From contig JBBAKM010000004.1 in the NCBI GenBank assembly GCA_040403495.1, positions 23,456 to 87,455 on the forward strand: 64,000 nt of DNA. The letters are read 5' to 3'. The position numbers and the translations under genes are program-made. The stretch comes from Bacteroidia bacterium. Its GTDB lineage: Bacteria; Bacteroidota; Bacteroidia; NS11-12g; UBA955. The notes under the pieces were generated by a model, which was given only the letters and a program-made list of their open reading frames with translations, searched no databases and had not been told where the DNA came from. Shown here in pieces: positions 4,427 to 47,642 of the stretch. Every line of letters begins with the position of its first letter. Within the stretch, counting starts at the first letter, position 1.

Positions 4427-4450
4427 TTTTTATTTCACATAATTAAAAAA

Positions 4451-4477
4451 GGCGATACGTTTGTATCGCCTTTTTTT
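4451..4477. terminator. Rho-independent terminator, bidirectional between the convergent ald and cyt-b5-like genes.
   Basis: The hairpin GGCGATACgtttGTATCGCC is followed by TTTTTTT on the + strand and preceded by an A-run. Confidence 0.75.
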
Positions 4478-4494
4478 GTAAAAAAAATGTCATT

Positions 4495-31321: not shown

Positions 31322-33871
31322 ATGGCATTTAAGAACAAAAACACATTTAGAAATGCTGCTGATGACTTTCAGCCAGAGGAGTCTGCTAAAAAAAGTCGTG
31401 TCAAAGGAAACTATTTTTCGTGGTTGAAAGACGAGAAAACCGCCAGAGTAATAGGTGCCTTTTTTGTGCTCTTTTCATTGTTTTTGTTCATGTCTTTTAT
31501 TTCTCATATTGTCAATTTATGGGGATTCGAAACCGATCAAGATTTATTGCTCTCTAATAGTTGGCAGTGGTACAAAACCAATAATCCCAAAGGTGCAGTT
31601 AACATGATGGGTTATTTGGGGGCATGGTTTAGCCACTTGTTTATTCACAAATGGTTTGGAGTTGCCTCTTTTGTGTGGCTATTAACTTTTTTTACATTGG
31701 GTACCAAAATGTTGTTCAATTGGCAATTGTATCCATTGTTAAAAACATTAAGATATTCCTTTTTCATCGTTATTTGGGTGTCAATGTTAATGGGTTTCTT
31801 GTTCTATAAACACAGCTTGTTTATGGGTGGTGGATTTGGTTATTACGGCGTGTCATGGTTGAGCTCATTGTTCGGTAAGTTAGGCGTTGTTCTGTTCTTG
31901 TTGTTGTATGCTTTTATGTTTGCAACTATTGTTTACAATTTAGATTTTAAATCAATTAAAAGAAGTAGTTTAATAGATGACAAGGAATCAAACACACCGG
32001 GTGTGCCGTTTTCTGAACATGAATTGGAAGCAGAGTCTATCAAAAATGAATTTTTAAATCAAGATTCCCCATTTGATGTAACGGCTAGTGAAATAGAAGA
32101 AGAGGATGAAGGTATAGAACTAATAACGATTAATCAAACACCTGAAATAAAAGAAGAAATAGAACTCGAGGAAATGATGAATCCTCAAGTTGTTAGTTTT
32201 GATGTAAACAATACCCCTAAACCAATTTCGAAAACTCAACCGAATTTTGAACTTAAAATAGAAGCACCGCAAGAGGAAGAATTAGTAATTGTTCAACCTG
32301 TAAGCGAACCTGTATTGGATACATCAAATTCTGTCGCTCCTATTACAGCTTCTTTTGGTGATGATTCTCAGTACGACCCACGTTTAGATTTGGCGGGTTA
32401 TCAAATGCCAACCATAGATTTATTGCAGGACTATGAAGTGGCCAAAACAGAGATAGACAGAACAGAACTTGAGCACAGTAAAAACCTAATCATTGAAACA
32501 CTCAAAAACTACAACATTGGTATTTCTGAGATTAAGGCAAACATAGGTCCTACGGTAACTTTATACGAAATAATTCCTGCACCGGGGGTTAAAATTTCGA
32601 GAATTAAAAATCTGGAAGACGATATAGCGCTCAGTTTGGCAGCTTTGGGAATTCGTATTATTGCCCCTATTCCCGGAAAAGGAACCATAGGGATAGAAGT
32701 GCCGAACAAAAAGCCCGAAATGGTCCCTATGAAATCCATGGTGGCAAGTAAAAAGTTTCAAGAGTGTGCTTATGAGTTGCCTGTAATATTAGGAAAAACA
32801 ATATCTAATGAAATTTATATAGCAGATTTAGCCAAAATGCCGCATTTGTTGTGTGCTGGAGCCACAGGTCAAGGTAAGTCTGTGGGTCTTAATACCATTA
32901 TTTGTTCGCTGTTGTACAAAAAACATCCTTCCGAATTAAAATTTGTATTAATCGATCCTAAAAAAGTTGAGTTAACACTTTATAACAAAATTGAAAGACA
33001 TTTCTTAGCCAAATTGCCTGGAGATGGAGATGCTATTATTACTGATACCAAATTGGTGACCAATACATTGAATTCATTGTGTATGGAAATGGATGAGCGT
33101 TACGATTTGTTGAAATCGGCGGGTAAGCGTAATATCATTGAGTACAATACGAAGTTCAAAGAAAGAAAATTATTACCAACAGAAGGGCATCGTTTTTTGC
33201 CATACATAGTGGTAGTGATAGACGAGGTTGCCGATTTAATGATGACCGCAGGTAGGGAAGTAGAAACGCCAATTGCTAGGTTAGCTCAGTTGGCTAGGGC
33301 AGTAGGTATTCACGTTATTTTGGCAACACAAAGGCCATCAGTAAATATTATTACAGGTACTATCAAAGCGAATTTCCCTGCGCGATTAGCTTTTAGAGTC
33401 ACCTCCAAAATAGATTCTCGTACGATTTTAGACAGCAATGGTGCCGACCAACTGATAGGAAAGGGAGATATGTTGTTTAGTACAGGCAACGATTTATTGC
33501 GATTGCAATGTCCATTTGTTGACACCCCTGAGGTGGAACGTATTACAGAATTTATAGGAAATCAAAGAGGATATAGTAGTGCCATGATATTGCCTGAGTT
33601 TAGGGGCGATGAAGACGGTGGTGCAAGAGATGATTTCGATCCTAATGACCGTGATGCTTTGTTTGAAGAAGCAGCCAGATTAATAGTTCAAACCCAACAA
33701 GGCAGTACCTCATTAATTCAAAGAAAATTGAAATTGGGCTACAACAGGGCAGGTCGTTTGATTGATCAATTAGAACAAGCAGGCATAGTGGGTCATTTTG
33801 AAGGGGCCAAAGCCAGAAAGGTATTAATACCAGACGAAGCCAGCTTAGATCAGTTTTTGGATAATATGTAG
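31322..33871 (+). CDS. ftsK: DNA translocase FtsK/SpoIIIE.
   Basis: The product has an N-terminal TM domain, a low-complexity linker, a motor domain (HLLCAGATGQGKSVGLNTII Walker A; VVVIDEVADLMM) and a C-terminal gamma winged helix. Confidence 0.95.
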   Translation: MAFKNKNTFRNAADDFQPEESAKKSRVKGNYFSWLKDEKTARVIGAFFVLFSLFLFMSFISHIVNLWGFETDQDLLLSNSWQWYKTNNPKGAVNMMGYLGAWFSHLFIHKWFGVASFVWLLTFFTLGTKMLFNWQLYPLLKTLRYSFFIVIWVSMLMGFLFYKHSLFMGGGFGYYGVSWLSSLFGKLGVVLFLLLYAFMFATIVYNLDFKSIKRSSLIDDKESNTPGVPFSEHELEAESIKNEFLNQDSPFDVTASEIEEEDEGIELITINQTPEIKEEIELEEMMNPQVVSFDVNNTPKPISKTQPNFELKIEAPQEEELVIVQPVSEPVLDTSNSVAPITASFGDDSQYDPRLDLAGYQMPTIDLLQDYEVAKTEIDRTELEHSKNLIIETLKNYNIGISEIKANIGPTVTLYEIIPAPGVKISRIKNLEDDIALSLAALGIRIIAPIPGKGTIGIEVPNKKPEMVPMKSMVASKKFQECAYELPVILGKTISNEIYIADLAKMPHLLCAGATGQGKSVGLNTIICSLLYKKHPSELKFVLIDPKKVELTLYNKIERHFLAKLPGDGDAIITDTKLVTNTLNSLCMEMDERYDLLKSAGKRNIIEYNTKFKERKLLPTEGHRFLPYIVVVIDEVADLMMTAGREVETPIARLAQLARAVGIHVILATQRPSVNIITGTIKANFPARLAFRVTSKIDSRTILDSNGADQLIGKGDMLFSTGNDLLRLQCPFVDTPEVERITEFIGNQRGYSSAMILPEFRGDEDGGARDDFDPNDRDALFEEAARLIVQTQQGSTSLIQRKLKLGYNRAGRLIDQLEQAGIVGHFEGAKARKVLIPDEASLDQFLDNM

Positions 33872-33998
33872 AACCGAATTAGTATTTAGTTCTAAATGCG
33901 ATAGAGGTTATTAAAATATAATACTTTTGGTGTTAAAATGGTGGAGCGATTAGTTTAAAATATTTACTTGTATTTATTCGTAAATACATAATAGCATT

Positions 33999-34385
33999 TT
34001 ATGCCCATTCTTGTCTAATCTTATATTTCTTAATTATATTATCTTTAGTAATTAGGGTCAAGTTTTCTGTTAGTGCTTGAGAAACAATTAGTCTATCAAA
34101 TGGGTCGCTGTGATGACTTGGTAATTTTGAAAGAGTTAGTAAATGGTCATTCGAAATTTGTATTATCTCGATTTGGTTACGTTCGGTATATTCAAACAAT
34201 TCTTCTAAAGAAATATCTAATGTCAATTTCCCAATTTGATGTTTAATTGTAATTTCCCAGAAACTTGCTATACTCAAGAAACAATGTTCATTAATGTCTT
34301 TTATTTTGGTTTTAATGCTTTCAGGAAGTTGCTTGTCGCCAGCAACAAACCATAGGAAAGTATGCGTATCAAGAAGATATGCCAT
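33999..34385 (-). CDS. vapC: PIN-domain toxin (VapC family).
   Basis: The 128-aa product has MAYLLDTHTFLWF... with conserved acidic residues. Its start overlaps the upstream antitoxin stop. Confidence 0.8.
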   Translation of the reverse strand: MAYLLDTHTFLWFVAGDKQLPESIKTKIKDINEHCFLSIASFWEITIKHQIGKLTLDISLEELFEYTERNQIEIIQISNDHLLTLSKLPSHHSDPFDRLIVSQALTENLTLITKDNIIKKYKIRQEWA

Positions 34386-34588
34386 TAAATATAGTCTTTA
34401 AAAATATCTAATGATTCATCAAAATCTTTGGCAAGCTTAATTTTGCCTTTAGCATATCCAAATTCCCTGAACTTTATTTTGTTCTTTTTCTTATTTTTCA
34501 TTTTAAGAAACGCAACAAAGTCGGCAACTTCTTTTCGAAGTGAGATTGGTAATGACTCAATTTCTATTTTAAGCGATGGGTTGGTCAT
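34385..34588 (-). CDS. vapB: VapB-type antitoxin (DUF2281-like). The start is likely the internal Met MTNPSLKIEI.
   Basis: A small protein encoded immediately upstream of vapC and overlapping it. The ORF track's longer start adds a hydrophobic leader. Confidence 0.55.
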   Translation of the reverse strand: MTNPSLKIEIESLPISLRKEVADFVAFLKMKNKKKNKIKFREFGYAKGKIKLAKDFDESLDIFKDYI

Positions 34589-34754
34589 ACCACAAATATA
34601 CAAAAATAATTTTAAAGTAAATAAGTATTTCCAAAATAATATCATCAAAAACTTTAAGATTATGCTTCCGATATTTCCTGTGTTTGCTTTGTTTCAAATA
34701 ACATATTTGGAAGAATAATTTGTATTCAATTGAAAATACATTAATTTTGAAACT

Positions 34755-34982
34755 ATGAAAACTTTGACAGTAAATATACCCGACAATTTAGATTTGACAA
34801 ATCGGGAATTGCTCATGCTAGTTGCTTCAAAATTGTACGAACAAGGTAAATTATCTCTTGGACAAGCAGCTGATCTTGTTGGATTATCTAAGCGAACTTT
34901 TGCTGAGTTATTACATCAATACAATGTTTCTGTTTTCAATTTTCCGACATCAGATTTAATAAGTGATGTAAAGAATGCGTAA
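34755..34982 (+). CDS. UPF0175-family antitoxin.
   Basis: The 75-aa product has ...LMLVASKLYEQGKLSLGQAADLVGLSKRTFAELL..., typical of UPF0175. It overlaps the downstream DUF3368 gene by 8 nt. Confidence 0.75.
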   Translation: MKTLTVNIPDNLDLTNRELLMLVASKLYEQGKLSLGQAADLVGLSKRTFAELLHQYNVSVFNFPTSDLISDVKNA

Positions 34983-35430
34983 GACCATTATCTCAGACAC
35001 AAGTTGTTTAAATGTTTTGTCAAATATTGGTGAACTTGAATTGTTAAAAAAAGTATATGATCAAATTATAACAACCTCAGACATTGAAAATGAATTTGGA
35101 GAGGAATTGCCTGATTGGATAGTTGTTGAAAATGTAAAAGACCTATCCACTCAAAAAGTATTAGAACTTCAGATAGATAAGGGAGAATCTAGTGCCATTT
35201 CATTGGCCTTGGAGTTGCCAGACAGCACTTTAATTTTAGATGATTATAAAGCTAGAAAAATTGCTCAATAATTAGGTCTTAAAATTACAGGAACAATTGG
35301 AGTAATTGTAAAAGCTAAATTAAATGGGATTATCCCTTCAATAAAACCTTACATTGAGAAAATAAAAGAAACAAATTTTAGAGTTTCTGATGAAATAGAA
35401 ATTGAAGCTTTAAAACAGGCTGATGAGTAA
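34975..35430 (+). pseudogene. DUF3368-family (PIN-like) toxin gene interrupted by an in-frame TAA at 35269-35271.
   Basis: The N-terminal 98 codons end ...DDYKARKIAQ*. The same frame continues directly as LGLKITGTIGVIVKAKLNGIIPSIKPYIEKIKETNFRVSDEIEIEALKQADE*, the conserved DUF3368 C-terminus. That makes this a single nonsense change in a full-length toxin. Confidence 0.7.
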
Positions 35431-35570
35431 GATTTAAAAATGACAGCTAAGTAGTTTGGCTGTTCAAATATAGCTTTTTTTGGATTTTCAAGTGTCTTAT
35501 AATTACACTTAACATAATCTTATAAAAGGAATAAGATTGTATTTTAAAAATTACTTATTCTTGTAGTACA

Positions 35571-35831
35571 ATGAAAATTGATAAAACGGTTTTTGGTATG
35601 TATAAAAAAGTCGAAAAACCGAATGTCTTTAAATATTGGCAAACTAAAACGGTTAAAGAAAGACTTCTTGCAGTAGCCTATTTAAATAGTGTGGCATTTA
35701 ATTACGATATCAATAATCCACCTAAAGTTGATAGAACGGTATTTTCTATTGAAAAAAGAGAGAAAAGAATAATTAATGATTTAAAATGGCAAAACAATCT
35801 TCAGCAAGACCTCTTGATATCAATGATTTAG
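35571..35831 (+). CDS. Hypothetical small protein.
   Basis: The 86-aa ORF has no recognisable domain and lies inside the TA island. Confidence 0.3.
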   Translation: MKIDKTVFGMYKKVEKPNVFKYWQTKTVKERLLAVAYLNSVAFNYDINNPPKVDRTVFSIEKREKRIINDLKWQNNLQQDLLISMI

Positions 35832-35894
35832 AAAATTTGAATTAAAATTTTTAATTAAAATTACATATTTTATTAGCTCTTTTTTAAATGTTAG

Positions 35895-35992
35895 CATCAA
35901 GTTAACCCTCCAAAAGTTAAGCTTTTTGGAGAGTTGATTATCCAAAAAGACAGATATTCGGAGAGTTGACTCTCCAAAAGTAGGGAATTTTG
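35895..35992. repeat. Cluster of three related hairpins sharing a TCCAAAAG core.
   Basis: The hairpins are CTCCAAAAgttaagctTTTTGGAG, GGAGAGttgaCTCTCC and TCCAAAAgtagggaaTTTTGGA. They lie between two convergent genes and none has a U-tract. Confidence 0.4.
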
Positions 35993-36025
35993 GATATTTG
36001 TTTTATTTTAATATTGTAACTTGTA

Positions 36026-36373
36026 TTACTTTATTTTATTGATAAGCTTTTGATTTTGATCTCTCAAGTATTTATTTTCTTCTTTCAATAGCTTAATTTC
36101 GTTTTCTTGAATCATTAATTGATGGATATATCCATAATTGTAATTAACTGAGTTTTCTGAATTATTGAAATTGTTAGTTACGTTATTGCTGAGAAGTTCA
36201 TTAAAATCGATTTCATAAATTTTAGCAAATTTAATCAACTTAGAAATATCTGGTTTAATTTTGCCAGTTTCAATTTTACTGTAATCTGATTGTTCAATTC
36301 CAAGCTCTGATGCAATTTTTTGCTGATCCCAACCTTTTTCTAGTCTTAATTTTTTTAGATTTTTGTGTATCAT
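36026..36373 (-). CDS. XRE-family helix-turn-helix transcriptional regulator with a C-terminal coiled-coil.
   Basis: The product has LKKLRLEKGWDQQKIASELGIEQSDYSKIETGK (HTH_3). It is divergent from the first lipoprotein/OMP module. Confidence 0.8.
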   Translation of the reverse strand: MIHKNLKKLRLEKGWDQQKIASELGIEQSDYSKIETGKIKPDISKLIKFAKIYEIDFNELLSNNVTNNFNNSENSVNYNYGYIHQLMIQENEIKLLKEENKYLRDQNQKLINKIK

Positions 36374-36486
36374 TATTAATATATTTGTTTTATTTTTTTA
36401 GGAAATTATGAAGACTCAATAAATTTAATTATTTTCGATTCGTTATTTTAAATATTGATTCAAACACTAATGAAAAAAACTCGCAT
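36347..36486 (+). promoter_or_regulatory. Leader/promoter block, copy 1, shared by both lipoprotein-OMP modules.
   Basis: Bases 36391-36486 (tatatttgttttatttttttaggaaattatgaagactcaataaatttaattattttcgattcgttattttaaatattgattcaaacactaatgaaaaaaactcgc) are near-identical to 39936-40034. Confidence 0.6.
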
Positions 36487-37713
36487 TTGAAAGGTAATAA
36501 AATTTTATACATTTTAATTGTTTTTCTATCAATGTCATGTTACAAAGAATACAAGATAGAAAATAAAAGTTATTATGTAATGACTGGAGGGATAGTTAAT
36601 GGCTATCCCCCTTTTTTTATCCTATATAAATGTGATTTGTTTTCTACTACAAAACTTCCATATTCTGAATTTGATATAGTAGTTTCAGATGATTTCGGGA
36701 ATGTAGATTCAATGGTTAACGGATTGTTCAATAAAATAATTGGTATACCTGGACGTTCATATTTAGTTAAATGGAAGCTTAAGTTTGATGATACATGGAA
36801 TCAGTTTAGTAAGCAAATGCCGGCTTTTAATATAGATGCTTATAGTGGGTATGTTGAAAATTCAAAGTATAAAGTAAATTCTCCAGATAATTATGAATAT
36901 TTTTTGGCTTACAAATCAAACAATTCAGATTATTTCAATTTGTTTATAGATGGGTTATTCAACCCAATTGATATAGGTAGTGCATTTTTTAAATTAGATA
37001 AATCAAACAATACACTAAACATCTGGCCACCTGCAAATATAGAGATTTCAAATTCAGATAGAAAGGGTATAGAATTTACAAATTATAATTGTTACAAACC
37101 ATTTATTTGGGAAAAAAAGTATTTTAAGTTTGGAAATAAAACAGATGAATTTTTTTTAAAAGACATTTTGTCATTATACTCTGTAAATCAAAATGATATG
37201 CAGAATATAGTGAATGGGAGTTTTAATTTTGCTTATCAAGATCAGCCGTTGTTTATAGGCGAATCGGTAAAATATGATACAAAAAGGAATAATCAATATA
37301 CTATAACTTATTTCATTACAAGTTATAAGGATTTTAATTTTGATAAAGTTGTTGACACCTCTGGTTCAGTTGATTTTGAAATAAAACTAAATAATCAACC
37401 ACTAGATTTAACTAAATATGAAATTGGAAATGTTGGATTTAACATATTGGATAATGATAATTTTAAATTTAATAATATTTACAAATTCTTCGATTCAAAT
37501 AAAACAATCGGCAAATTGTTTAATAAAGATTTTGTAGATTATGTTTTTAATAAAGAAAGTAAAAATAATCAATGTGTTGTTAAGTCAAGTTATAATATTA
37601 GAGTAGTAGTTTATTTTTATGAAAGGTCAAATCCTAATATTAGAAAAACACATTTTGAATTATTAAATTATGATAAAAGCGTTAATAAAATCCAAATAAA
37701 TTTGATTGATTGA
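36487..37713 (+). CDS. Lipoprotein of unknown function (module 1, partner A).
   Basis: The 408-aa product has a lipobox FLSMSCYKEYK and is a ~25-30% identical paralog of the 40035-41210 product, with shared motifs KWKL, NIWPP and CYKPFIW. Its stop overlaps the downstream OMP start (ATGA). Confidence 0.6.
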   Translation: MKGNKILYILIVFLSMSCYKEYKIENKSYYVMTGGIVNGYPPFFILYKCDLFSTTKLPYSEFDIVVSDDFGNVDSMVNGLFNKIIGIPGRSYLVKWKLKFDDTWNQFSKQMPAFNIDAYSGYVENSKYKVNSPDNYEYFLAYKSNNSDYFNLFIDGLFNPIDIGSAFFKLDKSNNTLNIWPPANIEISNSDRKGIEFTNYNCYKPFIWEKKYFKFGNKTDEFFLKDILSLYSVNQNDMQNIVNGSFNFAYQDQPLFIGESVKYDTKRNNQYTITYFITSYKDFNFDKVVDTSGSVDFEIKLNNQPLDLTKYEIGNVGFNILDNDNFKFNNIYKFFDSNKTIGKLFNKDFVDYVFNKESKNNQCVVKSSYNIRVVVYFYERSNPNIRKTHFELLNYDKSVNKIQINLID

Positions 37714-39866
37714 TGTTTGATGTCAAATTTATATTATTTTTTGTTTTTCTGCTGGGTTGTCAGTTATTAAAAGGGCAAAGAGATAATATAGTAGTTGTGA
37801 AGGTTGTTAGTTTTAATAGTCAAGAACCAATATTTGGAATTAAACTAAATATTGAAGATAAAGATTATCAAACAAATTCAGATGGCATTGCAAATGTTTA
37901 TCTCAAAAATAGTATTGGGTTTTTGAAAATATACAAAGGGGATAGTTTAATTAAAACCAGTCGATTGTTTGTTTATAGAGATACATCTATAACAATCGTT
38001 ATTGATGAACAGTATTTTGAAATTGAAAAATTTAAGTTAGTTGGTAATAAGAGCTTTAAAGAATTAGATAACAAAATTTCAATACCTATGAATTTGATAA
38101 AGACTTCGGTTTTGCCTTTATCAACAAATGATCCAATTCATCTTTTAAAAATGCTTCCCGGTGTTTCTACAGCTCAAGAAATGAATTCAAATATAAATGT
38201 AAGAGGCGCATCTTCATATAATACATGTATTTATCTTGATAATGTTCCTGTTCCAAATTTATCTCATAGCTTTGGATTAATTAGTTTTTATGATAATAAC
38301 ATTATAAGGCATATTGATTATTTTAACAATCAAATTTCTTCAGCTTTTGGTACAAGGGGGTCAAGTTATTTCAAGTTTTTTTTAAAAGACCCATTACTTA
38401 ATAAAAATAAAGGTGAATTTATAATTAATCCATTTTTTGTGACTGGTAACGCCAATTTAAAAATGCTAGAAAATAAATTTGGTTTATTTGTTAATTATAG
38501 AAAATCGATATTGTCTGAGCAATATAATGCATCTTTTCCGCTTTTTTCAAATTTTCAAGATGTGTTAGTGAAATCAAAATTTAAAATTAAAGAGAACTCA
38601 CATTTGTCAATATTTTATATGGATAGTTATGACAAAAGTTATAACTCATATGGTTTTGGATTAAATGTAAAAGATAGTGTTTTATCAAGGTTTAAAACAT
38701 TTTCAGTTGTGTTTAATAAAATGAATAAAAGGGGCTTTTCTCAAACAATTAGTGGGTTTATAAAATCTCAATTTCTGTCTAGAACAAACAATAACTTCCT
38801 TGATGTCACATTGAATAATAAACTAGATGAATATAATGTATCGTATTTGAATAGCAAATCCTTAAATAAGTATTTTAAATTTCTTTTTGGATTTGAAAAT
38901 CAATTTCATAAAAGTGAAAATAAAATTGATTCTTTTAATTTTAATAATCAAAAAAACAACATAAGTTCTTTGTTTTTTGATATTGAATATAAAAAAAATA
39001 ATTACAAGGTGTTTGCTAATGTTAGACCAAATTACTTTGTTTCCCTCAATGAAATATATTTTGAAGCAAGATCTGGAATATTGAGAAAATTTAATAATCT
39101 GGGATTATATACAGAGGTAAATAGGTATGTAAACTCAATTCATTCGTTATCAAATAATCTTTTTGCAATTCCTGAAGATTATAGATTTTTACCTACAAAA
39201 GTGTTTAAGCCGCAAACAACAAATGAGATACTTATTGGTTTGAAATATTCAAACCTTAGAATAAACTTCTCATCAAATTTTTACTATAGGGTTTACGATA
39301 ATAGCTATGATTACAAAAAACTTTATTTATCTCCAATTAACAAACTTTCGAATATATCAAAAGTGGATTTTAATAGTTATGGTATAGAAAATTTTGTTAG
39401 CATTAAGATAAGTAAGTCAAATTCAATGAATTTGTCATATACATATTCAAAATCAACAATGTATAATGATTCAATTAATTTAGGAATAAAATATGTTTCA
39501 AATTTTGATAGGCCTCACATTTTAAATGCATTTTATATGTTTAAATATAAAAGAATTACATTTACAACTTCTTTTATATTTAAAAGTGGTAGGCCATATA
39601 CAGCGCCATTGTATGTTTTGAATAATATCCCCTTTTATTCAAACAGGAATGAGTTTAGGTTGCCTGTTTTTCATAAACTAGACATCGGAGTTCTCTATGA
39701 ATTTAAATCAAAGGTTTCTCAAACTCTACAGTTTCACCTGTATAATGTCTATTCACGTAATAATATTTATGCTGTTGTTTTTAATTCTTCTTTTTCTAAT
39801 CCTGAATTTAAGTATTTTTCAGCTTTCCCATTTCTACCATCCTTCTCTTACAGTATTAAATTTTAG
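37710..39866 (+). CDS. Outer-membrane beta-barrel protein with an N-terminal CarbopepD_reg-like domain and a TonB-dependent-receptor plug-like domain (SusC-like, short form; module 1, partner B).
   Basis: The product has a signal peptide and the plug-like region SVLPLSTNDPIHLLKMLPGVSTAQEMNSNINVRGASSYNTCIYLDNVPV. The C-terminus ...AFPFLPSFSYSIKF ends in Phe. The last ~50 nt are identical to the 41207-43366 gene. Confidence 0.7.
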   Translation: MMFDVKFILFFVFLLGCQLLKGQRDNIVVVKVVSFNSQEPIFGIKLNIEDKDYQTNSDGIANVYLKNSIGFLKIYKGDSLIKTSRLFVYRDTSITIVIDEQYFEIEKFKLVGNKSFKELDNKISIPMNLIKTSVLPLSTNDPIHLLKMLPGVSTAQEMNSNINVRGASSYNTCIYLDNVPVPNLSHSFGLISFYDNNIIRHIDYFNNQISSAFGTRGSSYFKFFLKDPLLNKNKGEFIINPFFVTGNANLKMLENKFGLFVNYRKSILSEQYNASFPLFSNFQDVLVKSKFKIKENSHLSIFYMDSYDKSYNSYGFGLNVKDSVLSRFKTFSVVFNKMNKRGFSQTISGFIKSQFLSRTNNNFLDVTLNNKLDEYNVSYLNSKSLNKYFKFLFGFENQFHKSENKIDSFNFNNQKNNISSLFFDIEYKKNNYKVFANVRPNYFVSLNEIYFEARSGILRKFNNLGLYTEVNRYVNSIHSLSNNLFAIPEDYRFLPTKVFKPQTTNEILIGLKYSNLRINFSSNFYYRVYDNSYDYKKLYLSPINKLSNISKVDFNSYGIENFVSIKISKSNSMNLSYTYSKSTMYNDSINLGIKYVSNFDRPHILNAFYMFKYKRITFTTSFIFKSGRPYTAPLYVLNNIPFYSNRNEFRLPVFHKLDIGVLYEFKSKVSQTLQFHLYNVYSRNNIYAVVFNSSFSNPEFKYFSAFPFLPSFSYSIKF

Positions 39867-40034
39867 ATTTTTGTGTATCATTATTAAAAAATAGAATATA
39901 TTCATCAAAAATTGAATTTTTTGATGAATATATTTGTTTTATTTTTTTGGGAAATTATGAAGACTCAATAAATTTAATTATTTTCGATTCGTTATTTTAA
40001 ATATTGATTCAAACACTAATAAAAAAACTCGCCT
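39862..40034 (+). promoter_or_regulatory. Leader/promoter block, copy 2, with a palindrome-containing insertion.
   Basis: This copy matches copy 1 but inserts aaaatagaatatattcatcaaaaattgaattttttgatgaatatatt, which contains the perfect inverted repeat TTCATCAAAAAttgaaTTTTTTGATGAA. It also retains the first ~7 codons of the XRE gene in reverse complement (gtgtatcat). Confidence 0.6.
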
Positions 40035-41210
40035 ATGAAATTTAAAATCATTCTTTTTTTTATCGTTTTAACTCAAATAAGTTGTTACAAAGATTACGAC
40101 TTAATAAAGCAGGAATATTATTTTTTAAGGGGTTTGTTCGTCAATGGACAATCCCCTTCCTTTCAATTGTATTTTCAAAACACACAAGGCGATTATAAAG
40201 TAAATTATACTGACTATCAACTAGAGGTCATTAATGAAAATAATTCTGTTTTTAAAATGAATTCAAATGGTAACTTTTCTTTTTTATCTATAAAGCCTAA
40301 TTCTAAATACAAAGTGAGATGGAAATTAAATAGCGAGAAAGAATGGCACGAGCTTACCAAAGAGTCTATTAACTATGAAACAACGTTAAATGACAAATCA
40401 TTTGTTAAAGTCGAAAATGAATTGTTTGTTAATAGAGATAGAAATGATTCTTTTGTTTATTTTTTATACAATCCATATGATAGAAAGACTTTTGAAGAAC
40501 AGTTTTTAAAATCTTTTTTGATTGAATATCCCGATGCATTTCTTGAATTAAATCAAACAGACAATGCATTGATTTTATGGCCACCTTCCAATAAATATTA
40601 TTTAGATAGATTTAAAAATTCAACTAACTTTTGCTTCAAACCATTCACTTGGAAAATGTTAAGTGGGCCTGTATATAGTAATTTTCAACTTTATAGTATG
40701 TCTAAATCGGATTTTCAATTTTATTATAATTTACATAAAAATGATGTAGGAAAAAATACGCCTTTGGCGGTTGGTGAAGGCATATTGTGGGATTACAGTA
40801 AAGACAATGTAAAAGCCAAAATAGTCAATATTAACAATTATAATAATATTAAAATCTTTGATTATGTTAACAGAGATGAAAGGTTGTATGTTGATTTTTT
40901 AATAAATGGCAACTCAATAGATACATTAAGTCATAGAATAATTAGCGTTAATATGAGATTTGAAAAATCCGAAAATTCTTTTCCAGTTATGGGATGGCAA
41001 AATAAAACTGTTTATGCTGGTACTAAAGAATATTTTGCGCATCACTTCAACGAGAATTTCAATAAACCATGTGGTTATTTTAACAATATTTATAAATTGA
41101 GGTTTTTTGTATATCTTCATGATTTAAAAACAAACATAAGAACAAGTATTGAAATGCCAACATTCAACTACACAAAAGGCGAAAGTGTAGTTTTAGATAT
41201 TAAACCATGA
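40035..41210 (+). CDS. Lipoprotein of unknown function (module 2, partner A).
   Basis: The 391-aa product has a lipobox LTQISCYKDYD and is paralogous to the 36487-37713 product. Its stop overlaps the downstream OMP start (ATGA). Confidence 0.6.
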   Translation: MKFKIILFFIVLTQISCYKDYDLIKQEYYFLRGLFVNGQSPSFQLYFQNTQGDYKVNYTDYQLEVINENNSVFKMNSNGNFSFLSIKPNSKYKVRWKLNSEKEWHELTKESINYETTLNDKSFVKVENELFVNRDRNDSFVYFLYNPYDRKTFEEQFLKSFLIEYPDAFLELNQTDNALILWPPSNKYYLDRFKNSTNFCFKPFTWKMLSGPVYSNFQLYSMSKSDFQFYYNLHKNDVGKNTPLAVGEGILWDYSKDNVKAKIVNINNYNNIKIFDYVNRDERLYVDFLINGNSIDTLSHRIISVNMRFEKSENSFPVMGWQNKTVYAGTKEYFAHHFNENFNKPCGYFNNIYKLRFFVYLHDLKTNIRTSIEMPTFNYTKGESVVLDIKP

Positions 41211-43366
41211 AAAAAATATTTGTATTTTCTCTTTTATTTCTGTGTTTAGTATTAAAAAGCCAAACATTACATCAAATAAATTTTAAGTTTTTAGACCAAG
41301 CAAACAATCAACCGATTTCTAATTTACTAGTCAAATGCCAAAATACTGCAGCGTATAGTAATTCAGATGGTTTTGTTTCTGTGTTCTTACATTCAGATAC
41401 CTGTACGTTTCGTTTTTATGAATCAGATATATATTTACAAGAGTACAAATTAAAAGCATATAATGACACTTTTATAGTATTGAAAATAGAACGCATTTAT
41501 GAAATAAGTAAGTTTAAGCTAAGGGTAAATCACCAGCCCATAACTGCTAAAAATAACAGAATTTCTATAGGTCAAAATACACTTCAGTCTATTTCATTGC
41601 CACTAAGTACCAACGACCCAATTCATTTATTAAAAACATTGCCCGGGGTTAATACCAGTCAAGAAATGAATGCTAATTTAAATATTAGAGGTGGAAGTGC
41701 TTACAATACAGTCTTTTATTTAGATAATATTCCTGTGCCTAATTTAACTCATAGTTTTGGTTTATACAGTTTTTTTGATTTGAATACTATCAGACAAATT
41801 GATTATTTCAATAATAATGTAAGTAGTGAGTATGGCTCTAGGGGTTCAAGTTATATAAAATTTTATCTTAAAGACCCAATTGCTAATAAATCAACATCAG
41901 AGCTGAATATTAATCCTTTTTTTGTTAGTGGTAATGTTAATTTGAAGTTAAAAAAAGAAAAATTGGGTGTTTTTGTTAATTACAGAAAATCAATTTTCAA
42001 CACTGAATATAATGTTCTTTTCCCTCTTTTTTCGGAGTTTTCAGATTTATTGATTAAAACAAAATATAACTTTAACAAAAGGTCGTCATTAAGTTTAATA
42101 TACACCGATAATCAAGACAGGGTTACTGATTTTAATGCAACGGGAATTAACTCAAGAGATAGCTTACAATGGCAGTTTAAAGCCTTTTCATCACAATTTG
42201 ATTTAATCTCTAAAACTGGCGTAAAACATGAAGCAATTTTTTTCATTAAGAATCAAGTATTGTCAAGGCAATCTTTGAATAATCAGTTTAATTACAATAA
42301 CGAATTTAATGAAATGAACTTTAAATATTCGTTAAAGAAAAGTTTTAGCCAGAATTTTAAATCATCATTAGGCTTAGAACATCAAATTCATCAAAATAAT
42401 AATTCAATAGCTTTTAACAATAAAACCATCAATAATTTGAATGTTTTATCACTTTATACGGATAACTCATACCAATTTAAAAACTTGATTTTTAATGCTA
42501 ATTTAAGGTTGAGTAATTTTATAGAATTAAAGAAAACCTATTTGGAAAAAAGGTTAAGTGTAAATTATAAGCTCAATAAGTCGAATTTTATTGCGGAATA
42601 TAATTCTTTTGTTAATTCTACACATAGTTTGGTCAACAATGTTTTTCCCGTGCCTGATGATTTTAAGTTTTTGGCGAATAAAGATTTTTTGCCTCAGGTA
42701 ACTAATGAGTGGTTGATTGGCTATAATGTTCAACTAAAAAAATCAAATCTACAATTAAATGCTTATCATAGAAATTATCTAAATAGCTATGATTACAGAA
42801 GATTGAATATTGATAATTATGCCTCATTTAGCAACGTTTTTAAGATGAATCATATCAGCTATGGGGTTGAAGCTTTGTCAAATATAAACATTAACGAAAA
42901 GCATAGTTTTGTTTTGTCCTATACTTATTCAAAATCTACGATGCAAAATGATTCAGTCAATTTAGGTTTATTATATCCAACTAGTTACGACAGGCCACAT
43001 AATTTTAATTTATTGTATAGTTTTAAATATAAAAGATTTACGTTTACTAGTACTTTTACTTGGCAAAGTGGTAGGGTTGCTACGGTACCTTTATTTGTAG
43101 CTTACGCTAATGCTACCCCAATTTATTCTCTAAGAAATGAGTATCGTTTAAAACCTTTTCATAAAATGGATATTGGTTTTCAATACAGTTTTAGAAATAA
43201 AGGTAAAATTAAACAGTTTTTAAATGTTAATTTGTACAATGTATATTTTCGTCAAAATACTTATGCTGTTGTATGGGAAAGTAACAACAATACTAGATCT
43301 GCTGAACTAAAATATCTAACAGCTTTCCCATTTCTACCATCCTTCTCTTACAGTATTAAATTTTAG
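41207..43366 (+). CDS. Outer-membrane CarbopepD/plug/beta-barrel protein (module 2, partner B).
   Basis: The 719-aa product is ~65% identical to the module-1 protein in the plug region (ISLPLSTNDPIHLLKTLPGVNTSQEMNANLNIRGGSAYNTVFYLDNIPV). It has the identical C-terminal TAFPFLPSFSYSIKF. Confidence 0.7.
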   Translation: MKKIFVFSLLFLCLVLKSQTLHQINFKFLDQANNQPISNLLVKCQNTAAYSNSDGFVSVFLHSDTCTFRFYESDIYLQEYKLKAYNDTFIVLKIERIYEISKFKLRVNHQPITAKNNRISIGQNTLQSISLPLSTNDPIHLLKTLPGVNTSQEMNANLNIRGGSAYNTVFYLDNIPVPNLTHSFGLYSFFDLNTIRQIDYFNNNVSSEYGSRGSSYIKFYLKDPIANKSTSELNINPFFVSGNVNLKLKKEKLGVFVNYRKSIFNTEYNVLFPLFSEFSDLLIKTKYNFNKRSSLSLIYTDNQDRVTDFNATGINSRDSLQWQFKAFSSQFDLISKTGVKHEAIFFIKNQVLSRQSLNNQFNYNNEFNEMNFKYSLKKSFSQNFKSSLGLEHQIHQNNNSIAFNNKTINNLNVLSLYTDNSYQFKNLIFNANLRLSNFIELKKTYLEKRLSVNYKLNKSNFIAEYNSFVNSTHSLVNNVFPVPDDFKFLANKDFLPQVTNEWLIGYNVQLKKSNLQLNAYHRNYLNSYDYRRLNIDNYASFSNVFKMNHISYGVEALSNININEKHSFVLSYTYSKSTMQNDSVNLGLLYPTSYDRPHNFNLLYSFKYKRFTFTSTFTWQSGRVATVPLFVAYANATPIYSLRNEYRLKPFHKMDIGFQYSFRNKGKIKQFLNVNLYNVYFRQNTYAVVWESNNNTRSAELKYLTAFPFLPSFSYSIKF

Positions 43367-43399
43367 ATTTATTCATTGTAGGTAGGGGCTTTAAGTTAT

Positions 43400-43720
43400 A
43401 TGTTTAAACAAGCCAAGTTGCTAACACAAAAAATATTGCAAATGAAAAAAAATAGTATCTTTGAGTATTATTTTTTTCAAATGAAAGCTGAGCACAATGT
43501 AAATAGTCAAAAATTAGAACTTATTCAATGGCTTTCTACTATAGAAGATCAATCTACCATTGAAAAGCTGATTGAATTTAAAAATAAAGAAAATAAAGAT
43601 TGGTGGGATTCACTCTCTAAAAAAGAAGAACAATCAATAAATAAAGGAATTTTAGATGCAGAAAAAGGAAATCTAAAATCCCATTCAATTGTAAGAAACA
43701 GGTATGAAAAGTGGTTATAA
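43400..43720 (+). CDS. Putative antitoxin-like small protein (addiction-module-component-like C-terminus).
   Basis: The 106-aa product has ...DWWDSLSKKEEQSINKGILDAEKGNLKSHSIVRNRYEKWL. It sits immediately upstream of a decayed ParE/RelE-like ORF. The true start may be the internal Met MKAEHN. Confidence 0.35.
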   Translation: MFKQAKLLTQKILQMKKNSIFEYYFFQMKAEHNVNSQKLELIQWLSTIEDQSTIEKLIEFKNKENKDWWDSLSKKEEQSINKGILDAEKGNLKSHSIVRNRYEKWL

Positions 43721-43730
43721 CGTATTCTAG

Positions 43731-44002
43731 ACTGAAAATGCCCTAATAGAATTAGAAGAAACTATTAAATACTTAGAAACCAATTGGACAAATATTGAAA
43801 TCCAAAATTTATTTGAAAATTTAGATAGAACGATAACCCTACTTTCTAAAAATCCATTAATTTTCCCATTAAGTCATAGAAAAAAGGTTAGAAGAGTGGT
43901 TTTCTCTCTTTAAATACTTTGTATTACAGAGTTGTAGATGGTAGGGTAGAAATATTATCGTTTTTTTCAAATAGGCAAAACCCTGATAAAATCAACATTT
44001 AG
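43731..44002 (+). pseudogene. RelE/ParE-family toxin remnant with no start codon and a -1 frameshift near 43905.
   Basis: Frame 1 reads ENALIELEETIKYLETNWTNIEIQNLFENLDRTITLLSKNPLIFPLSHRKKVRRVVFSL*. The shifted frame reads LYYRVVDGRVEILSFFSNRQNPDKINI*. The second half matches the conserved RelE/ParE C-terminus (Y-R-V-x-D-x-V-E-I-L-x-I-x-H-x-R-Q-x-P). Confidence 0.5.
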
Positions 44003-44022
44003 TAATAGTAATAGCTTGTTAC

Positions 44023-44100
44023 TCTTTTTCTAATCCTGAATTTAGGCACTTTACAGCTTCCACATTTCTACCATCCTTCTCTTACAGTATTAAATTTTAG
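44023..44100 (+). pseudogene. Orphan 3'-terminal fragment of a third lipoprotein-partner OMP paralog.
   Basis: The sequence ctttttctaatcctgaatttaggcactttacagcttccacatttctaccatccttctcttacagtattaaattttag aligns to 39788-39866 and 43289-43366. It translates in frame to SFSNPEFRHFTASTFLPSFSYSIKF*. Confidence 0.65.
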
Positions 44101-44223
44101 ATTTAATTGTCTTTTTGTCCTGCTATTCACAGTAATAGTGTTATTTAATAGAAGTGTTCCTTTAAACAAACTCATTTTGGAACACTATTTGGATAGCTTG
44201 AATAATAAATAATAGTATTAAAT

Positions 44224-44907
44224 TTGCGCCCAATGAAAATTAAAGTCCTTTTTTCTTTTTTGATTCTCGTGTTAATGTCCTTTGTAGCTACACCACCCAA
44301 AGTGGAAAAAGACAAAGATGCCAACAAGTTATTGAAAGATATTTCTAAAAAATACAAAGCTTATACCTCTCTTAAAGCCGATTTTACAATGTTGAACGAA
44401 CCTGCCGATGGTAAAAAAAGTACCACCGAAAAGGGCTCTTTGTGGTCGAAAGGGAATAACTTTAAACTGAATTTTGGAGGTCAACAGATTTTTTGTAACG
44501 GTAAGTTTATATGGACTTATACCGCCGAAACCAATGAGTGTGTTAAGGATAATTACAATCCCAATAGCTCAAAAGGAATTAACCCTACCAAATTATTTAC
44601 TATTTGGGAAAAAGGGTTTTTATACATCAGTGAAGGAACATACAAAAAAGGCACTTCTATTATTTCTAAAATAAAACTAACCCCAACCGACAAATCTGTT
44701 CCTTATTTCTTAATGAACTTAGAGGTTGACAATACCCTTAAAACATTGCAAAGTATGAAAGTATCATACAAAGCAGGCAACAAACAAACCTACACTATCA
44801 CTCAACAAAAAGCCAATGAGGCTATTTTGGACAAGGAGTTTGTGTTTGATGCAAGCAAATACAGCGGTGTAGAAATCATCGATTTAACCAGTAAGTCAAA
44901 AAAATAA
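44224..44907 (+). CDS. lolA: LolA-like outer-membrane lipoprotein carrier protein. The start is probably the Met at 44233 (MKIKVLF).
   Basis: The product has a signal peptide and ...LKADFTMLNEPADGKKSTTEKGSLWSKGNNFKLNFGGQQIFCNGKFIWTY..., typical of LolA/LppX-fold proteins. lolA normally neighbours ftsK. Confidence 0.75.
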   Translation: MRPMKIKVLFSFLILVLMSFVATPPKVEKDKDANKLLKDISKKYKAYTSLKADFTMLNEPADGKKSTTEKGSLWSKGNNFKLNFGGQQIFCNGKFIWTYTAETNECVKDNYNPNSSKGINPTKLFTIWEKGFLYISEGTYKKGTSIISKIKLTPTDKSVPYFLMNLEVDNTLKTLQSMKVSYKAGNKQTYTITQQKANEAILDKEFVFDASKYSGVEIIDLTSKSKK

Positions 44908-45989: not shown

Positions 45990-46277
45990 ATAAAGTGTTA
46001 TTTCTTCTTCTTCTTTGTATATTTTACACCCTAGTAAACTCTATTAATGTGGAAAATAGATAGGTGTATTTATAGGCTGACTTATCGCTATTTTATTACG
46101 AGATAATTCAGTTATATGGTTCTTAACATATTAGGAAAATGTTACCTTGTGTTTTAATGTTAAATTTACTTAATGTGCTATAGGGTAATTTACATGTCAA
46201 AGATTTAGTGTTTTAGTCATATAAATGGTAGCAAATTTTTTATTATCTTTGTAAAATAGAAGTTTTTAAATATAGTT

Positions 46278-46451
46278 ATGGAAGAGAAGCAAATAAAACT
46301 ACTTAAAGCATTAGCTAAAAAGATTGAGTCCAAAAAGAGAGAAAGGGCTGTTGTTATGTTTTCTCTTAAATCTGCTAAAATTCTCACCAAGGAGGAAAAT
46401 TTTACAGGGCATTTGAAAAATCTTGATAAAGTCTTTGCCACTGCCGAATAA
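46278..46451 (+). CDS. Small ORF of 57 aa, below the ORF-track cutoff, translationally coupled to the next gene.
   Basis: The ORF reads MEEKQIKLLKALAKKIESKKRERAVVMFSLKSAKILTKEENFTGHLKNLDKVFATAE. Its stop overlaps the downstream ATG (TAATG), and a purine-rich stretch lies upstream. Confidence 0.35.
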   Translation: MEEKQIKLLKALAKKIESKKRERAVVMFSLKSAKILTKEENFTGHLKNLDKVFATAE

Positions 46452-47086
46452 TGTATCGTAATCGTCCAAATTTATCAATTGGATTTCACGGATGTGACCT
46501 TGCTGTAATGCAAGAATTAGTATCTAATCCAGACAAAGTGAAAAAGAGTCAAGAAAAATTTGATTGGCTGGGTAATGGGTTTTATGTTTGGGAAAATAAT
46601 CAAGCAAGAGCTTTGAAATGGGCGGTTGATAAAAAGCAAAGAGGAGGACAACTGAAATATCCAGCTGTCGTAGGTGTTGTATATCAACTTGATTATTGTT
46701 TAGATTTAACAGATTCAGAATCGATTGAATTACTTCCTACCTACTACAAATTGATGAAGGATGATTTATCCATAATGGGCAAGAATATTCCAGAAAATAG
46801 AAATGTAAATGGAGATAAACATCATGACCTTGTTATTAGGGAATTAGATTGCGCTGTTATAGAATATATGCATCAAAAGATTGATGAGGAAATTAAATCT
46901 GATTTAGAAACAAAAGGGTATTCTGAATATAGGCATTTTGATACAGTAAGGGGGATATTTACCGAAGGAGGTCCAATTTTTGATGGTGCAGGAATTCAAT
47001 CTAAAAACCACATTCAAGTTTGTATTAGGAACTTAAATTGTATCAAAGGCTTCTTTATGCCAAGAAAAGAAAGTAAATTTCCTTAA
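46451..47086 (+). CDS. Hypothetical protein with a conserved GFY-type motif (possibly DUF3990-like).
   Basis: The 211-aa product carries ...IGFHGCDLAV...GNGFYVWENNQARALKWA.... It lies in an AT-rich gap after trhO. The family assignment is from memory only. Confidence 0.4.
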   Translation: MYRNRPNLSIGFHGCDLAVMQELVSNPDKVKKSQEKFDWLGNGFYVWENNQARALKWAVDKKQRGGQLKYPAVVGVVYQLDYCLDLTDSESIELLPTYYKLMKDDLSIMGKNIPENRNVNGDKHHDLVIRELDCAVIEYMHQKIDEEIKSDLETKGYSEYRHFDTVRGIFTEGGPIFDGAGIQSKNHIQVCIRNLNCIKGFFMPRKESKFP

Positions 47087-47148
47087 AAGCAATTTGCTTT
47101 TAAATTTGAATTTCTAACAATTGTAAAATTCCCTAAAAAAACAATAAT

Positions 47149-47607: not shown

Positions 47608-47642
47608 AAAAAAAGGGTTGTTGCAAATGTACAACAACCCTT
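47608..47642 (-). terminator. Rho-independent terminator downstream of glnN.
   Basis: On the minus strand the hairpin AAGGGTTGTTGtacatttgCAACAACCCTT is followed by TTTTTTT and then immediately by the tspO ATG. Confidence 0.7.

Follow-up and report, generated by a model that had tools for sequence, protein, structure and literature searches.

A perfect palindrome at the junction of two tandem lipoprotein/TonB-receptor units in a Bacteroidota genome, most likely an ordinary intergenic hairpin

This analysis concerns a perfect palindrome within a 64-kb stretch of DNA (termed here the window, by which the whole analyzed stretch is meant), the source of which is AT-rich and Bacteroidota-like (32.7% G+C). 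The palindrome lies within a variable island--namely, the stretch of about 10 kb between ftsK and lolA, which contains three toxin-antitoxin modules--and near the junction of two tandem units, the first of which is divergent from a regulator gene. The genes, together with the junction as it emerges from reading the sequence and from a repeat search, are as follows:

36026-36373, minus strand: gene for an XRE-family HTH regulator of 115 aa (Pfam HTH_19/HTH_3), divergent from unit 1
36487-39866, plus strand: unit 1, a lipoprotein gene (36487-37713, TTG start) and a gene for a TonB-dependent receptor-like protein (37713-39866, stop codon TAG at 39864-39866)
39861-39870, no strand assigned: tandem junction, a 10-nt microhomology TTTTAGATTT common to XRE codons 3-7 and the 3' ends of the receptor genes (further occurrences at 43361-43370 and 44095-44104)
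39861-39881, minus strand: remnant of the XRE gene, its first seven codons (ATGATACACAAAAATCTAAAA)
40035-43366, plus strand: unit 2, a lipoprotein gene (40035-41210) and a gene for a TonB-dependent receptor-like protein (41207-43366)

The junction is a head-to-tail joining of two lipoprotein/receptor cassettes through this 10-nt microhomology. The cassettes themselves are very divergent, with 28% and 47% protein identity, and their number (one or two) varies among strains of the same species. An identical XRE protein is encoded on nine public contigs; exact look-ups of the unit-1 proteins returned no matches, and the junction is known from one assembly, contigs from two other read sets ending within the repeated leader.

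A copy of this leader precedes each unit, and alignment of the two copies confirms that they are collinear, as a first-pass annotation of this DNA had noted. Copy 1 consists of 36353-36379 followed directly by 36380-36486, and copy 2 of 39861-39887, an extra segment and 39929-40034; the predicted features below follow from the alignment and from the -7 box rule for Bacteroidota promoters (PMC9723704):

36353-36379, no strand assigned: left shared block of copy 1, XRE codons 1-7 and 6 nt upstream of the ATG, identical to 39861-39887
36380-36486, plus strand: right shared block of copy 1 (the short form), with a -7 box TATATTTG at 36380-36387, a predicted transcription start site (TSS) near A36392 and a uORF at 36470-36490
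39888-39928, no strand assigned: the 41 nt of copy 2, missing from copy 1 and likewise from each of the nine XRE-adjacent contigs of the same species in the alignment
39929-40034, plus strand: right shared block of copy 2, with a -7 box TATATTTG at 39929-39936 and a predicted TSS near A39941

Apart from the extra segment, the ends of which are ambiguous by 2 nt (AA), the aligned copies differ only by A36400 versus G39949 and by the loss of G36472. The extra DNA had been put at 47 nt; it is indeed present, at a length of 41 nt, the TATATT included in the earlier count being found in copy 1 as well. It had also been placed 'where the XRE gene lies', which is imprecise: copy 2 still has the first seven XRE codons (39861-39881), with the segment beginning 7 nt upstream of the start-codon remnant. 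In Bacteroidota the -7 box, TAnnTTTG, occurs at -12 to -5 (PMC9723704), from which transcription of unit 2 is predicted to begin at about 39941, downstream of the hairpin that the palindrome can form; the hairpin ends at a perfect -7 box and thus would occupy about -47 to -7 of the unit-2 promoter, outside the unit-2 mRNA. Because the sequences of the two promoters agree fully from the -7 box on and diverge completely upstream of about -13, it is plausible that the two units are regulated differently, as the annotation had proposed.

The palindrome had been described as an 11-bp inverted repeat; it is perfect, as stated, and its perfect arms in fact extend over 17 bp:

39895-39911, plus strand: left arm, AATATATTCATCAAAAA
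39912-39917, plus strand: loop of 6 nt, TTGAAT
39918-39934, plus strand: right arm, TTTTTGATGAATATATT, whose last 6 nt overlap the -7 box
39935-39949, plus strand: T-rich tail after the hairpin (TGTTTTATTTTTTTG); on the minus strand the hairpin is followed by CTATTTTTTAAT

Its outer 8 bp, AATATATT, are self-complementary and occur already in copy 1. The palindrome is beyond chance expectation: its 17-bp stem is the longest perfect stem in the window, in which only six stems reach at least 9 bp, and the maxima in 30 first-order Markov simulations were 9-14. A 94-nt stretch containing it folds as RNA at -21.5 kcal/mol (z = -3.9), the stem-loop alone accounting for -18 to -18.5 kcal/mol. Nor is it a common genome-wide low-complexity repeat, a possibility raised by the annotation itself: there is no second copy in the window, and a pattern of its arms (11+11) has 39 matches among 185,579 genomes and another 3 among viral contigs, each with an unrelated loop and flanks. 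The shared leader has no matches in viral contigs. The left-arm region has a 19/20 match inside an ORF at 46451-47086, which was judged to be a coincidence within coding sequence.

The annotation took the extra segment for an insertion, which comparison with a distant relative does not bear out. Positions 39880-39937 of copy 2 are colinear with 8439-8495 of the relative's locus, L050--that is, with its XRE-operon control region from the XRE start codon to the -7 box. This alignment scores 48, as compared to 24 +/- 4 for shuffled sequences (0 of 1000 of which reach 48), and among 5912 background windows that score is reached only by the L050 region itself. (Loci L057, L059, L061 and L062 have no usable XRE-side intergenic region; a metagenome scan with a receptor profile found only three loci.) Since the long form is homologous to the full-length L050 control region, the palindromic DNA is probably not an insertion; instead, copy 1 and all nine same-species contigs more likely carry a 41-nt deletion, the direction of the change being judged by this homology. 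The 41 nt are thus most likely ancestral control-region DNA, from the XRE-proximal part of the XRE operon, rather than foreign DNA, and it is by the 41-nt deletion that the XRE-adjacent copy would have lost them.

The reading that is favored here, albeit with slightly less than even confidence, is that the palindrome acts as an intrinsic terminator, probably in both directions, which keeps the two tandem lipoprotein/TonB-receptor operons insulated from each other and which derives from ancestral operator DNA. On passing the end of the unit-1 receptor gene, polymerase would transcribe a hairpin of 17-18 bp and then UGUUUUAUUUUUUU, and would be released there; unit 2 would then be transcribed from its own promoter, with its predicted TSS and with a -7 box that overlaps the hairpin base. 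Read on the minus strand, this hairpin precedes CUAUUUUUUAAU and could also stop antisense transcripts of the duplicated, now orphan, XRE promoter.

Intrinsic terminators are characterized by a U-rich tract of about 7-9 nt directly 3' of a G+C-rich stem. The junction hairpin starts 28 nt past the TAG of the co-directional unit-1 receptor gene, and is preceded by an A-run and followed by TGTTTTATTTTTTT, with T at 8 of the first 10 bases past the stem. It thus combines a stable RNA hairpin, a U-rich tract directly 3' and a site downstream of a co-directional gene end, and it resembles Rho-independent bidirectional terminators in following a stop codon closely, in lying between an A-run and a U-run, and in having a U-rich tail on both strands. 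The first-pass annotation, in proposing a regulatory site here, overlooked this anatomy--that is, the co-directional stop codon 28 nt upstream and the T-run after the hairpin. Hairpins of -17 kcal/mol or below occur within 19-27 nt of the stop at 3 of the window's 48 gene ends (4445-4476, 47613-47642 and the junction palindrome); all three have the same geometry, and 4445-4476 shows the same order of A-run, hairpin and T-run. Beside the divergent XRE gene, where no terminator is needed, the palindrome is absent, both from copy 1 and from the nine same-species contigs. The equivalent stretch of L050, located between divergently transcribed genes, shows no fold (z = 0.17), so the strong hairpin is specific to the site behind a co-directional gene.

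Certain features nevertheless set the palindrome apart from known terminators. Canonical terminators are GC-rich (PMC3993855), as are the two other terminator hairpins of the window, whereas the junction stem is AU-rich, with 2 G-C pairs in 17. Compared with Rho-independent terminators, moreover, this nearly pure A-U stem is unusually long (17-18 bp), overlaps the next promoter's -7 box, and has its origin in promoter/operator DNA, not in the 3' flank of a gene. Hairpins of similar stability also occur within ORFs, at 30071 and 36569, so that fold energy alone is not specific for a terminator. A sigma-70/GC-rich terminator consensus scan, which requires stems with at least three G-C pairs and whose consensus is uninformative for AT-rich Bacteroidota-type sequence, does not list the palindrome, and its promoter-like matches show no excess over shuffles.

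The ancestry of the palindrome--a region that, in relatives, lies between divergent genes and contains probable regulator sites--points instead to an operator. Close to the annotation's own idea, the 41 nt, which lie at -47 to -7 of the unit-2 promoter, may be the retained binding region of an XRE-family repressor (or of another HTH protein), in which case the XRE protein beside unit 1 would control unit 2 in trans, whereas the XRE-adjacent promoter would have lost the sites. This is tentatively entertained as a possibility, though on balance an unlikely one. Candidate operator motifs are GAATATAT and the following hexamer:

39892-39897, plus strand: TAGAAT, a candidate regulator half-site at the L050 offset from the XRE ATG, with TTGAAT 20 nt on (in L050, a second TAGAAT)

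The 41-nt segment has its homologue in the XRE-proximal part of the L050 control region, and in L050 and copy 2 alike TAGAAT lies 13 nt from the XRE ATG, with a second T(A/T)GAAT 20 nt downstream; within either leader, exact TAGAAT occurs only in the extra segment. In another relative, L055, the intergenic region contains four TAGAAT/ATTCTA and one TAGAAC at spacings of 22, 11, 11 and 11 nt, the densest cluster in the L055 locus as against a background of about 0.09 per 100 nt, and shares the TGAATATAT that adjoins the -7 box. The XRE-operon intergenic region of both L050 and L055 harbors a cluster of TAGAAT/ATTCTA hexamers, although these are only two independent relatives and the DNA is AT-rich. 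Moreover, the XRE HTH region is identical to its L050 counterpart at 27 of 33 positions, palindromic operators are obvious in the corresponding type of intergenic region of a further relative (L056), and a protein bound at the palindrome's position would occlude RNA polymerase.

Operators of the XRE/Cro type are short dyad-symmetric sites (about 14-20 bp) that overlap a promoter. The junction resembles Cro/CI-type arrangements in that the palindrome overlaps a promoter and is situated between the remnant of a small divergent HTH gene and the presumably regulated operon, and in that it contains dyads (GAATATATTC) and hexamers that may be shared with orthologous control regions. Here, however, the dyads GAATATATTC and GAATATATTT, at -47 to -6 and separated by 32 bp, form part of a perfect palindrome of 40 bp, which is much longer and more perfect than an operator of this type. 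In none of the ten XRE-adjacent copies does the promoter region of the regulator itself contain the putative motifs, so that any autoregulatory operator must lie elsewhere. In the 64-kb window the palindrome, GAATATATTC and the spaced hexamer pair each occur only once, and a search with the candidate motifs found nothing above chance; binding of XRE to the 41 nt is a prediction from sequence.

A perfect palindrome does not require selection either, which likewise tells against a terminator, since template switching at a quasipalindrome could make one (PMC7202029). The palindrome would then be a functionless by-product, an ancestral imperfect inverted repeat that was perfected during replication, and the same structure would have provoked the 41-nt deletion in copy 1; this we regard as distinctly improbable. 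Such mutations perfect quasipalindromes in a single step (PMC7202029), and the equivalent L050 stretch already has, as we read the alignment, about 11 of 16 arm positions complementary, which makes it a weak quasipalindrome. Perfect arms (17/17) fit a recent templated event; the deletion, which took out the whole left arm and loop and all but a minor part of the right arm, has endpoints that share only a 2-nt AA microhomology; and single-unit strains manage without the palindrome. A perfect repeat where a relative's is imperfect, alongside a sister deletion with minimal microhomology, is likewise what template-switch products and palindrome-stimulated deletions look like in E. coli (PMC7202029), although the mutational history proposed here, unlike that in those studies, is reconstructed from three sequences. 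Against this, the palindrome's placement, energy and T-tail closely match those of the genome's other terminators, and a strong hairpin with a U-run is expected to act on RNA polymerase whether or not it was selected.

Still more doubtful is a combined function, in which the 41 nt would be the original XRE operator, lost by every sampled XRE-adjacent promoter and kept by the distal cassette, so that XRE would switch only the second cassette in trans while the same 40 bp doubled as a bidirectional terminator.

It is very improbable that the palindrome is a small mobile element or a repeat of the MITE/REP-like type, or that it served as the site-specific recombination site by which the two units came to lie in tandem: although it is a short AT-rich intergenic palindrome near a duplication junction in a variable island with three toxin-antitoxin modules, it is single-copy in the window, has no family in 185,579 genomes nor any but unrelated arm-pattern matches in genomes and viral contigs, lacks terminal repeats and any target-site duplication beyond AA, and is homologous to a relative's control region. 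The 'remnant recombination site' suggested by the annotation likewise finds no place here, inasmuch as the extra segment begins 18 nt to the right of the junction, TTTTAGATTT at 39861-39870, and the neighboring genes (toxin-antitoxin modules, XRE, LolA and FtsK) include no recombinase. A riboswitch, attenuator or structured leader was also rejected: an Rfam scan of 35800-44300 gave no match at E <= 1, the shared leader folded as RNA has no significant structure (z = +1.0), and the hairpin is upstream of the predicted TSS.

The junction palindrome is thus most likely an ordinary intergenic hairpin, whose likeliest job is to end one operon before the next. More generally, it serves as a marker of how this locus evolved--through a probable deletion in the other leader copy, through the joining of cassettes by a 10-nt microhomology, and through the divergence of strains with one and with two cassettes. 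A combined function, if true, would be a compact terminator/operator/promoter composite that both insulates and individually switches cassettes within a recombining, hypervariable surface-receptor array. To our knowledge, the promoter and repressor logic of the Bacteroidota is poorly charted; if the 41 nt are indeed an operator, they would provide a simple test case of regulatory rewiring after tandem cassette gain in this phylum.

The leaders of two tandem lipoprotein/TonB-dependent receptor operons (units 1 and 2) are collinear and occur in two forms: a short form (copy 1) before unit 1, which adjoins a divergent regulator gene, and a long form (copy 2) before unit 2. The genes concerned are as follows:

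36026-36373, minus strand: XRE-family HTH regulator gene (XRE)
36487-37713: lipoprotein gene of unit 1
37713-39866: TonB-dependent-receptor-like gene of unit 1, with Plug domain
40035-41210 and 41207-43366: unit 2, with the architecture of unit 1

A left shared block (36353-36379 and 39861-39887; 27/27 identical) and a right shared block (36380-36486 and 39929-40034; identical except for A36400/G39949 and the lost G36472) are separated in copy 2 by 41 extra bases (39888-39928), whose ends are ambiguous by 2 nt because AA is shared. This extra segment contains most of a perfect palindrome, the 17-bp arms of which (39895-39911 and 39918-39934) enclose the hexamer TTGAAT as loop; copy 1 already has the outer 8 bp, AATATATT, which are self-complementary. 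The first-pass annotation had correctly reported both extra sequence in copy 2 and a perfect inverted repeat, but had set the former at 47 nt, which is too long since TATATT also occurs in copy 1, and the latter at 11 bp. The loss of G36472 destroys, in copy 2, the start codon of a six-codon uORF (36470-36490; MKKTRI*), whose stop and the TTG start of lipoprotein 1 overlap (TTGA); the arrangement is alike in the same-species contig L001, where the overlap is ATGA.

The entire stretch from ftsK to lolA (33871-44224) is a variable island comprising three toxin-antitoxin modules (PIN/DUF2281, DUF3368/UPF0175 and ParE), the XRE gene and the receptor units. The ParE module has an intact antitoxin (43400-43720) and, at 43700-44000, a toxin pseudogene (TGG->TAG near the start and a 1-nt deletion), which is intact in L001 (99 aa). 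Just downstream of the XRE gene (35900-36003), a ~32-nt unit with hairpins (GGAGAGTTGAnTCTCCAAAAG...) occurs in three tandem copies that differ between strains (at many positions in L005, another same-species contig).

Of all perfect stems in the 64 kb, only six of which reach at least 9 bp, that of the palindrome is the longest, at 17 bp; the maxima in thirty first-order Markov simulations were 9-14 bp. As RNA, 39867-39960 folds with -21.5 kcal/mol (z = -3.9; 0/200 shuffles as good), and in a sliding 44-nt fold the palindrome and 4435-4478 are the most stable local structures in the window. Palindrome and arms each occur once in the window. The pattern of 11+11-nt arms with any 3-9-nt loop is matched 39 times across 185,579 species-representative genomes, and viral contigs add 3 matches; none of these is a related copy, inasmuch as all differ in loop and flanks. 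By these counts from the window and the public collections, the palindrome is therefore neither a low-complexity commonplace nor a repeat-family member. A 19/20 match to its left-arm region, ATAGAATATATGCATCAAAA (46860-46879), is probably a coincidence; it lies within an unannotatable 211-aa ORF (46451-47086), part of a segment (46008-47113) in whose place L001 has a KilA-N gene.

At its end the right arm runs into TATATTTG (39929-39936; 36380-36387 in copy 1), which fits the sigma-A -7 box of Bacteroidota, TAnnTTTG, perfectly; in Flavobacterium this box sits at -12 to -5 (PMC9723704). From this placement, transcription starts are predicted at A36392 and A39941. The two promoters have the same sequence from -12 onward and are unrelated further upstream; if the predicted start holds, the palindrome would lie outside the unit-2 mRNA and cover -47 to -7 of that unit's promoter. 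RNA structure in the shared leader is not significant (z = +1.0), and Rfam has no match anywhere in 35800-44300.

Which form of the leader came first may be judged from other strains and relatives. An identical XRE protein is encoded on nine public contigs, and the short form adjoins XRE in all nine. In three of these same-species contigs (L001, L004 and L005; 97-99% DNA identity to the window) the short leader leads directly into a unit-2-type operon, and these strains have neither unit 1 nor the junction nor the palindrome; contigs from two further read sets match the window at 100% identity but end within the repeated leader, and speak neither for nor against the junction. Further afield, receptors that share 39-47% identity with that of unit 1 occur in different genomic contexts, and the readable upstream flanks (L050-52, L055 and L056) have one or two lipoprotein genes and a small divergent HTH gene before the receptor. 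The L050 locus, represented by three identical metagenome contigs, encodes a regulator 50% identical to XRE (27/33 over the recognition-helix region); this orthologue (L050 8050-8445, also in L051 and L052) has two in-frame stops in HTH helix 2 in all three contigs, and therefore appears inactivated.

The distance from the XRE start codon to the -7 box is 45 nt in L050 (box TACATTTG), as compared with 47 nt for copy 2 and 6 nt for copy 1. The L050 stretch is colinear with copy 2 at 39880-39937 (42/57 positions identical), including an 18-nt exact match, ATTATTAAAAAATAGAAT, that takes in the left 10 nt of the extra segment. Their local score of 48 (24.2 +/- 4.0 in shuffles; 0/1000 as high) was reached solely by the L050 region among 5912 background 92-nt windows (509 with G+C < 25%); copy 1 has no comparable similarity to L050, its score being matched by 553/1000 shuffles. 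These alignments make an ancestral long form, or at least one that is a true allele of the control region, quite probable, on the evidence of one independent outgroup (L050) and motif-level support from L055. The presumed insertion into copy 2 would then probably be the reverse, a loss of 41 nt from the XRE-adjacent copy.

How the tandem arose is suggested by the left edge of copy 2, which retains XRE codons 1-7 (39861-39881). The same 10 nt, TTTTAGATTT, are carried by XRE codons 3-7 (36353-36362) and span the stop codon of all three receptor 3' ends (39861-39870, 43361-43370 and, in a remnant, 44095-44104), which points to a head-to-tail junction where a receptor 3' end would have been joined to the XRE 5' end by 10-nt microhomology. 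The remnant (82 nt, 44023-44104, past the toxin-antitoxin module) is closer to the unit-1 end (93% identity) than to the unit-2 end (80%); L001, with its single unit, has it too, at 97.6% identity to the end of unit 1. Recent duplication of the units is ruled out by their divergence (lipoproteins 28% identical, receptors 47%, coding DNA 45-75%). The 134-nt leaders are 98.5% identical and the final 50 nt of the receptor genes (39821-39870 and 43321-43370) 100%; such conserved flanks of surface-receptor cassettes look like recombination flanks. The pattern would fit divergent cassette alleles with conserved flanks, placed in tandem and reshuffled by recombination, and the one-unit/two-unit polymorphism, in which the single-unit strains carry the unit-2 cassette only, is consistent with such reshuffling.

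As to present function, the hairpin starts about 27-28 nt after the stop codon of the unit-1 receptor gene (39864-39866), with TTAAAAAATAG directly before it and TGTTTTATTTTTTT directly after. For each of the window's 48 long ORFs, the most stable hairpin up to 110 nt from the stop codon was sought; only three gene ends had one of -17 kcal/mol or better close to the stop:

ORF 3311-4426, plus strand: -17.2 kcal/mol, 19 nt past the stop; A-run, hairpin, T-run
ORF 47665-49818, minus strand: -20.8 kcal/mol, 19 nt past the stop
Unit-1 receptor gene: -18.0 kcal/mol; 8 T among the next 10 bases

In anatomy the palindrome thus resembles this genome's intrinsic terminators, but differs in its stem, which has 2 G-C pairs only. 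On the minus strand CTATTTTTTAAT comes after the stem, so that the hairpin could act bidirectionally. The homologous stretch of L050, which lies between divergent genes, has no fold (z = 0.17). Going by what is established for intrinsic terminators (e.g. PMC3993855), such a structure is expected to halt bacterial RNA polymerase at least partly. Because a strong hairpin with a direct U-run stands behind a co-directional gene, the palindrome is read here, tentatively, as an intrinsic, likely bidirectional, terminator parting unit 1 from unit 2. It would stop transcription leaving unit 1 ahead of unit 2, might also halt transcripts that run antisense from the duplicated XRE promoter, and would have been built out of ancestral control-region DNA.

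The regulator binding site proposed in the first-pass annotation is kept as a rival, rather unlikely, rather than as the best explanation; here the extra segment would be a putative operator. Within this segment, at 39892-39897, is the one exact TAGAAT found in the two leaders; its distance from the XRE ATG (a remnant in copy 2) is 13 nt, as in L050, and a T(A/T)GAAT stands 20 nt further downstream in L050 and copy 2 alike. In 20 kb, L050 has no other such pair. The L055 intergenic region (3351-3415) has four TAGAAT/ATTCTA and one TAGAAC at spacings of 22, 11, 11 and 11 nt, the densest cluster of that locus (background ~0.09 per 100 nt), and in L056 (3340-3420) the equivalent place is taken by three GGAAAC(n)GTTTCC palindromes that go with that locus's own, different HTH gene; both arrays, in HTH-operon intergenic regions, seem clearly operator-like. 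However, a perfect 40-bp palindrome is far longer than an HTH operator, the motifs are missing beside the XRE gene in 10/10 copies, and further copies were not found in the window. An improbable alternative is a neutral quasipalindrome perfected by template switching (a process described in PMC7202029), the same structure having provoked the deletion in copy 1. Both are compatible with the terminator reading as regards origin and differ from it on present function. A mobile element or remnant recombination site is rejected as highly implausible, given the single copy in the window, the unrelated outside matches and a junction that, at 18 nt leftward of the extra segment, does not coincide with the palindrome.

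In kind, the palindrome is an ordinary intergenic terminator-like hairpin; the interest lies in its evolutionary context rather than in the palindrome itself.
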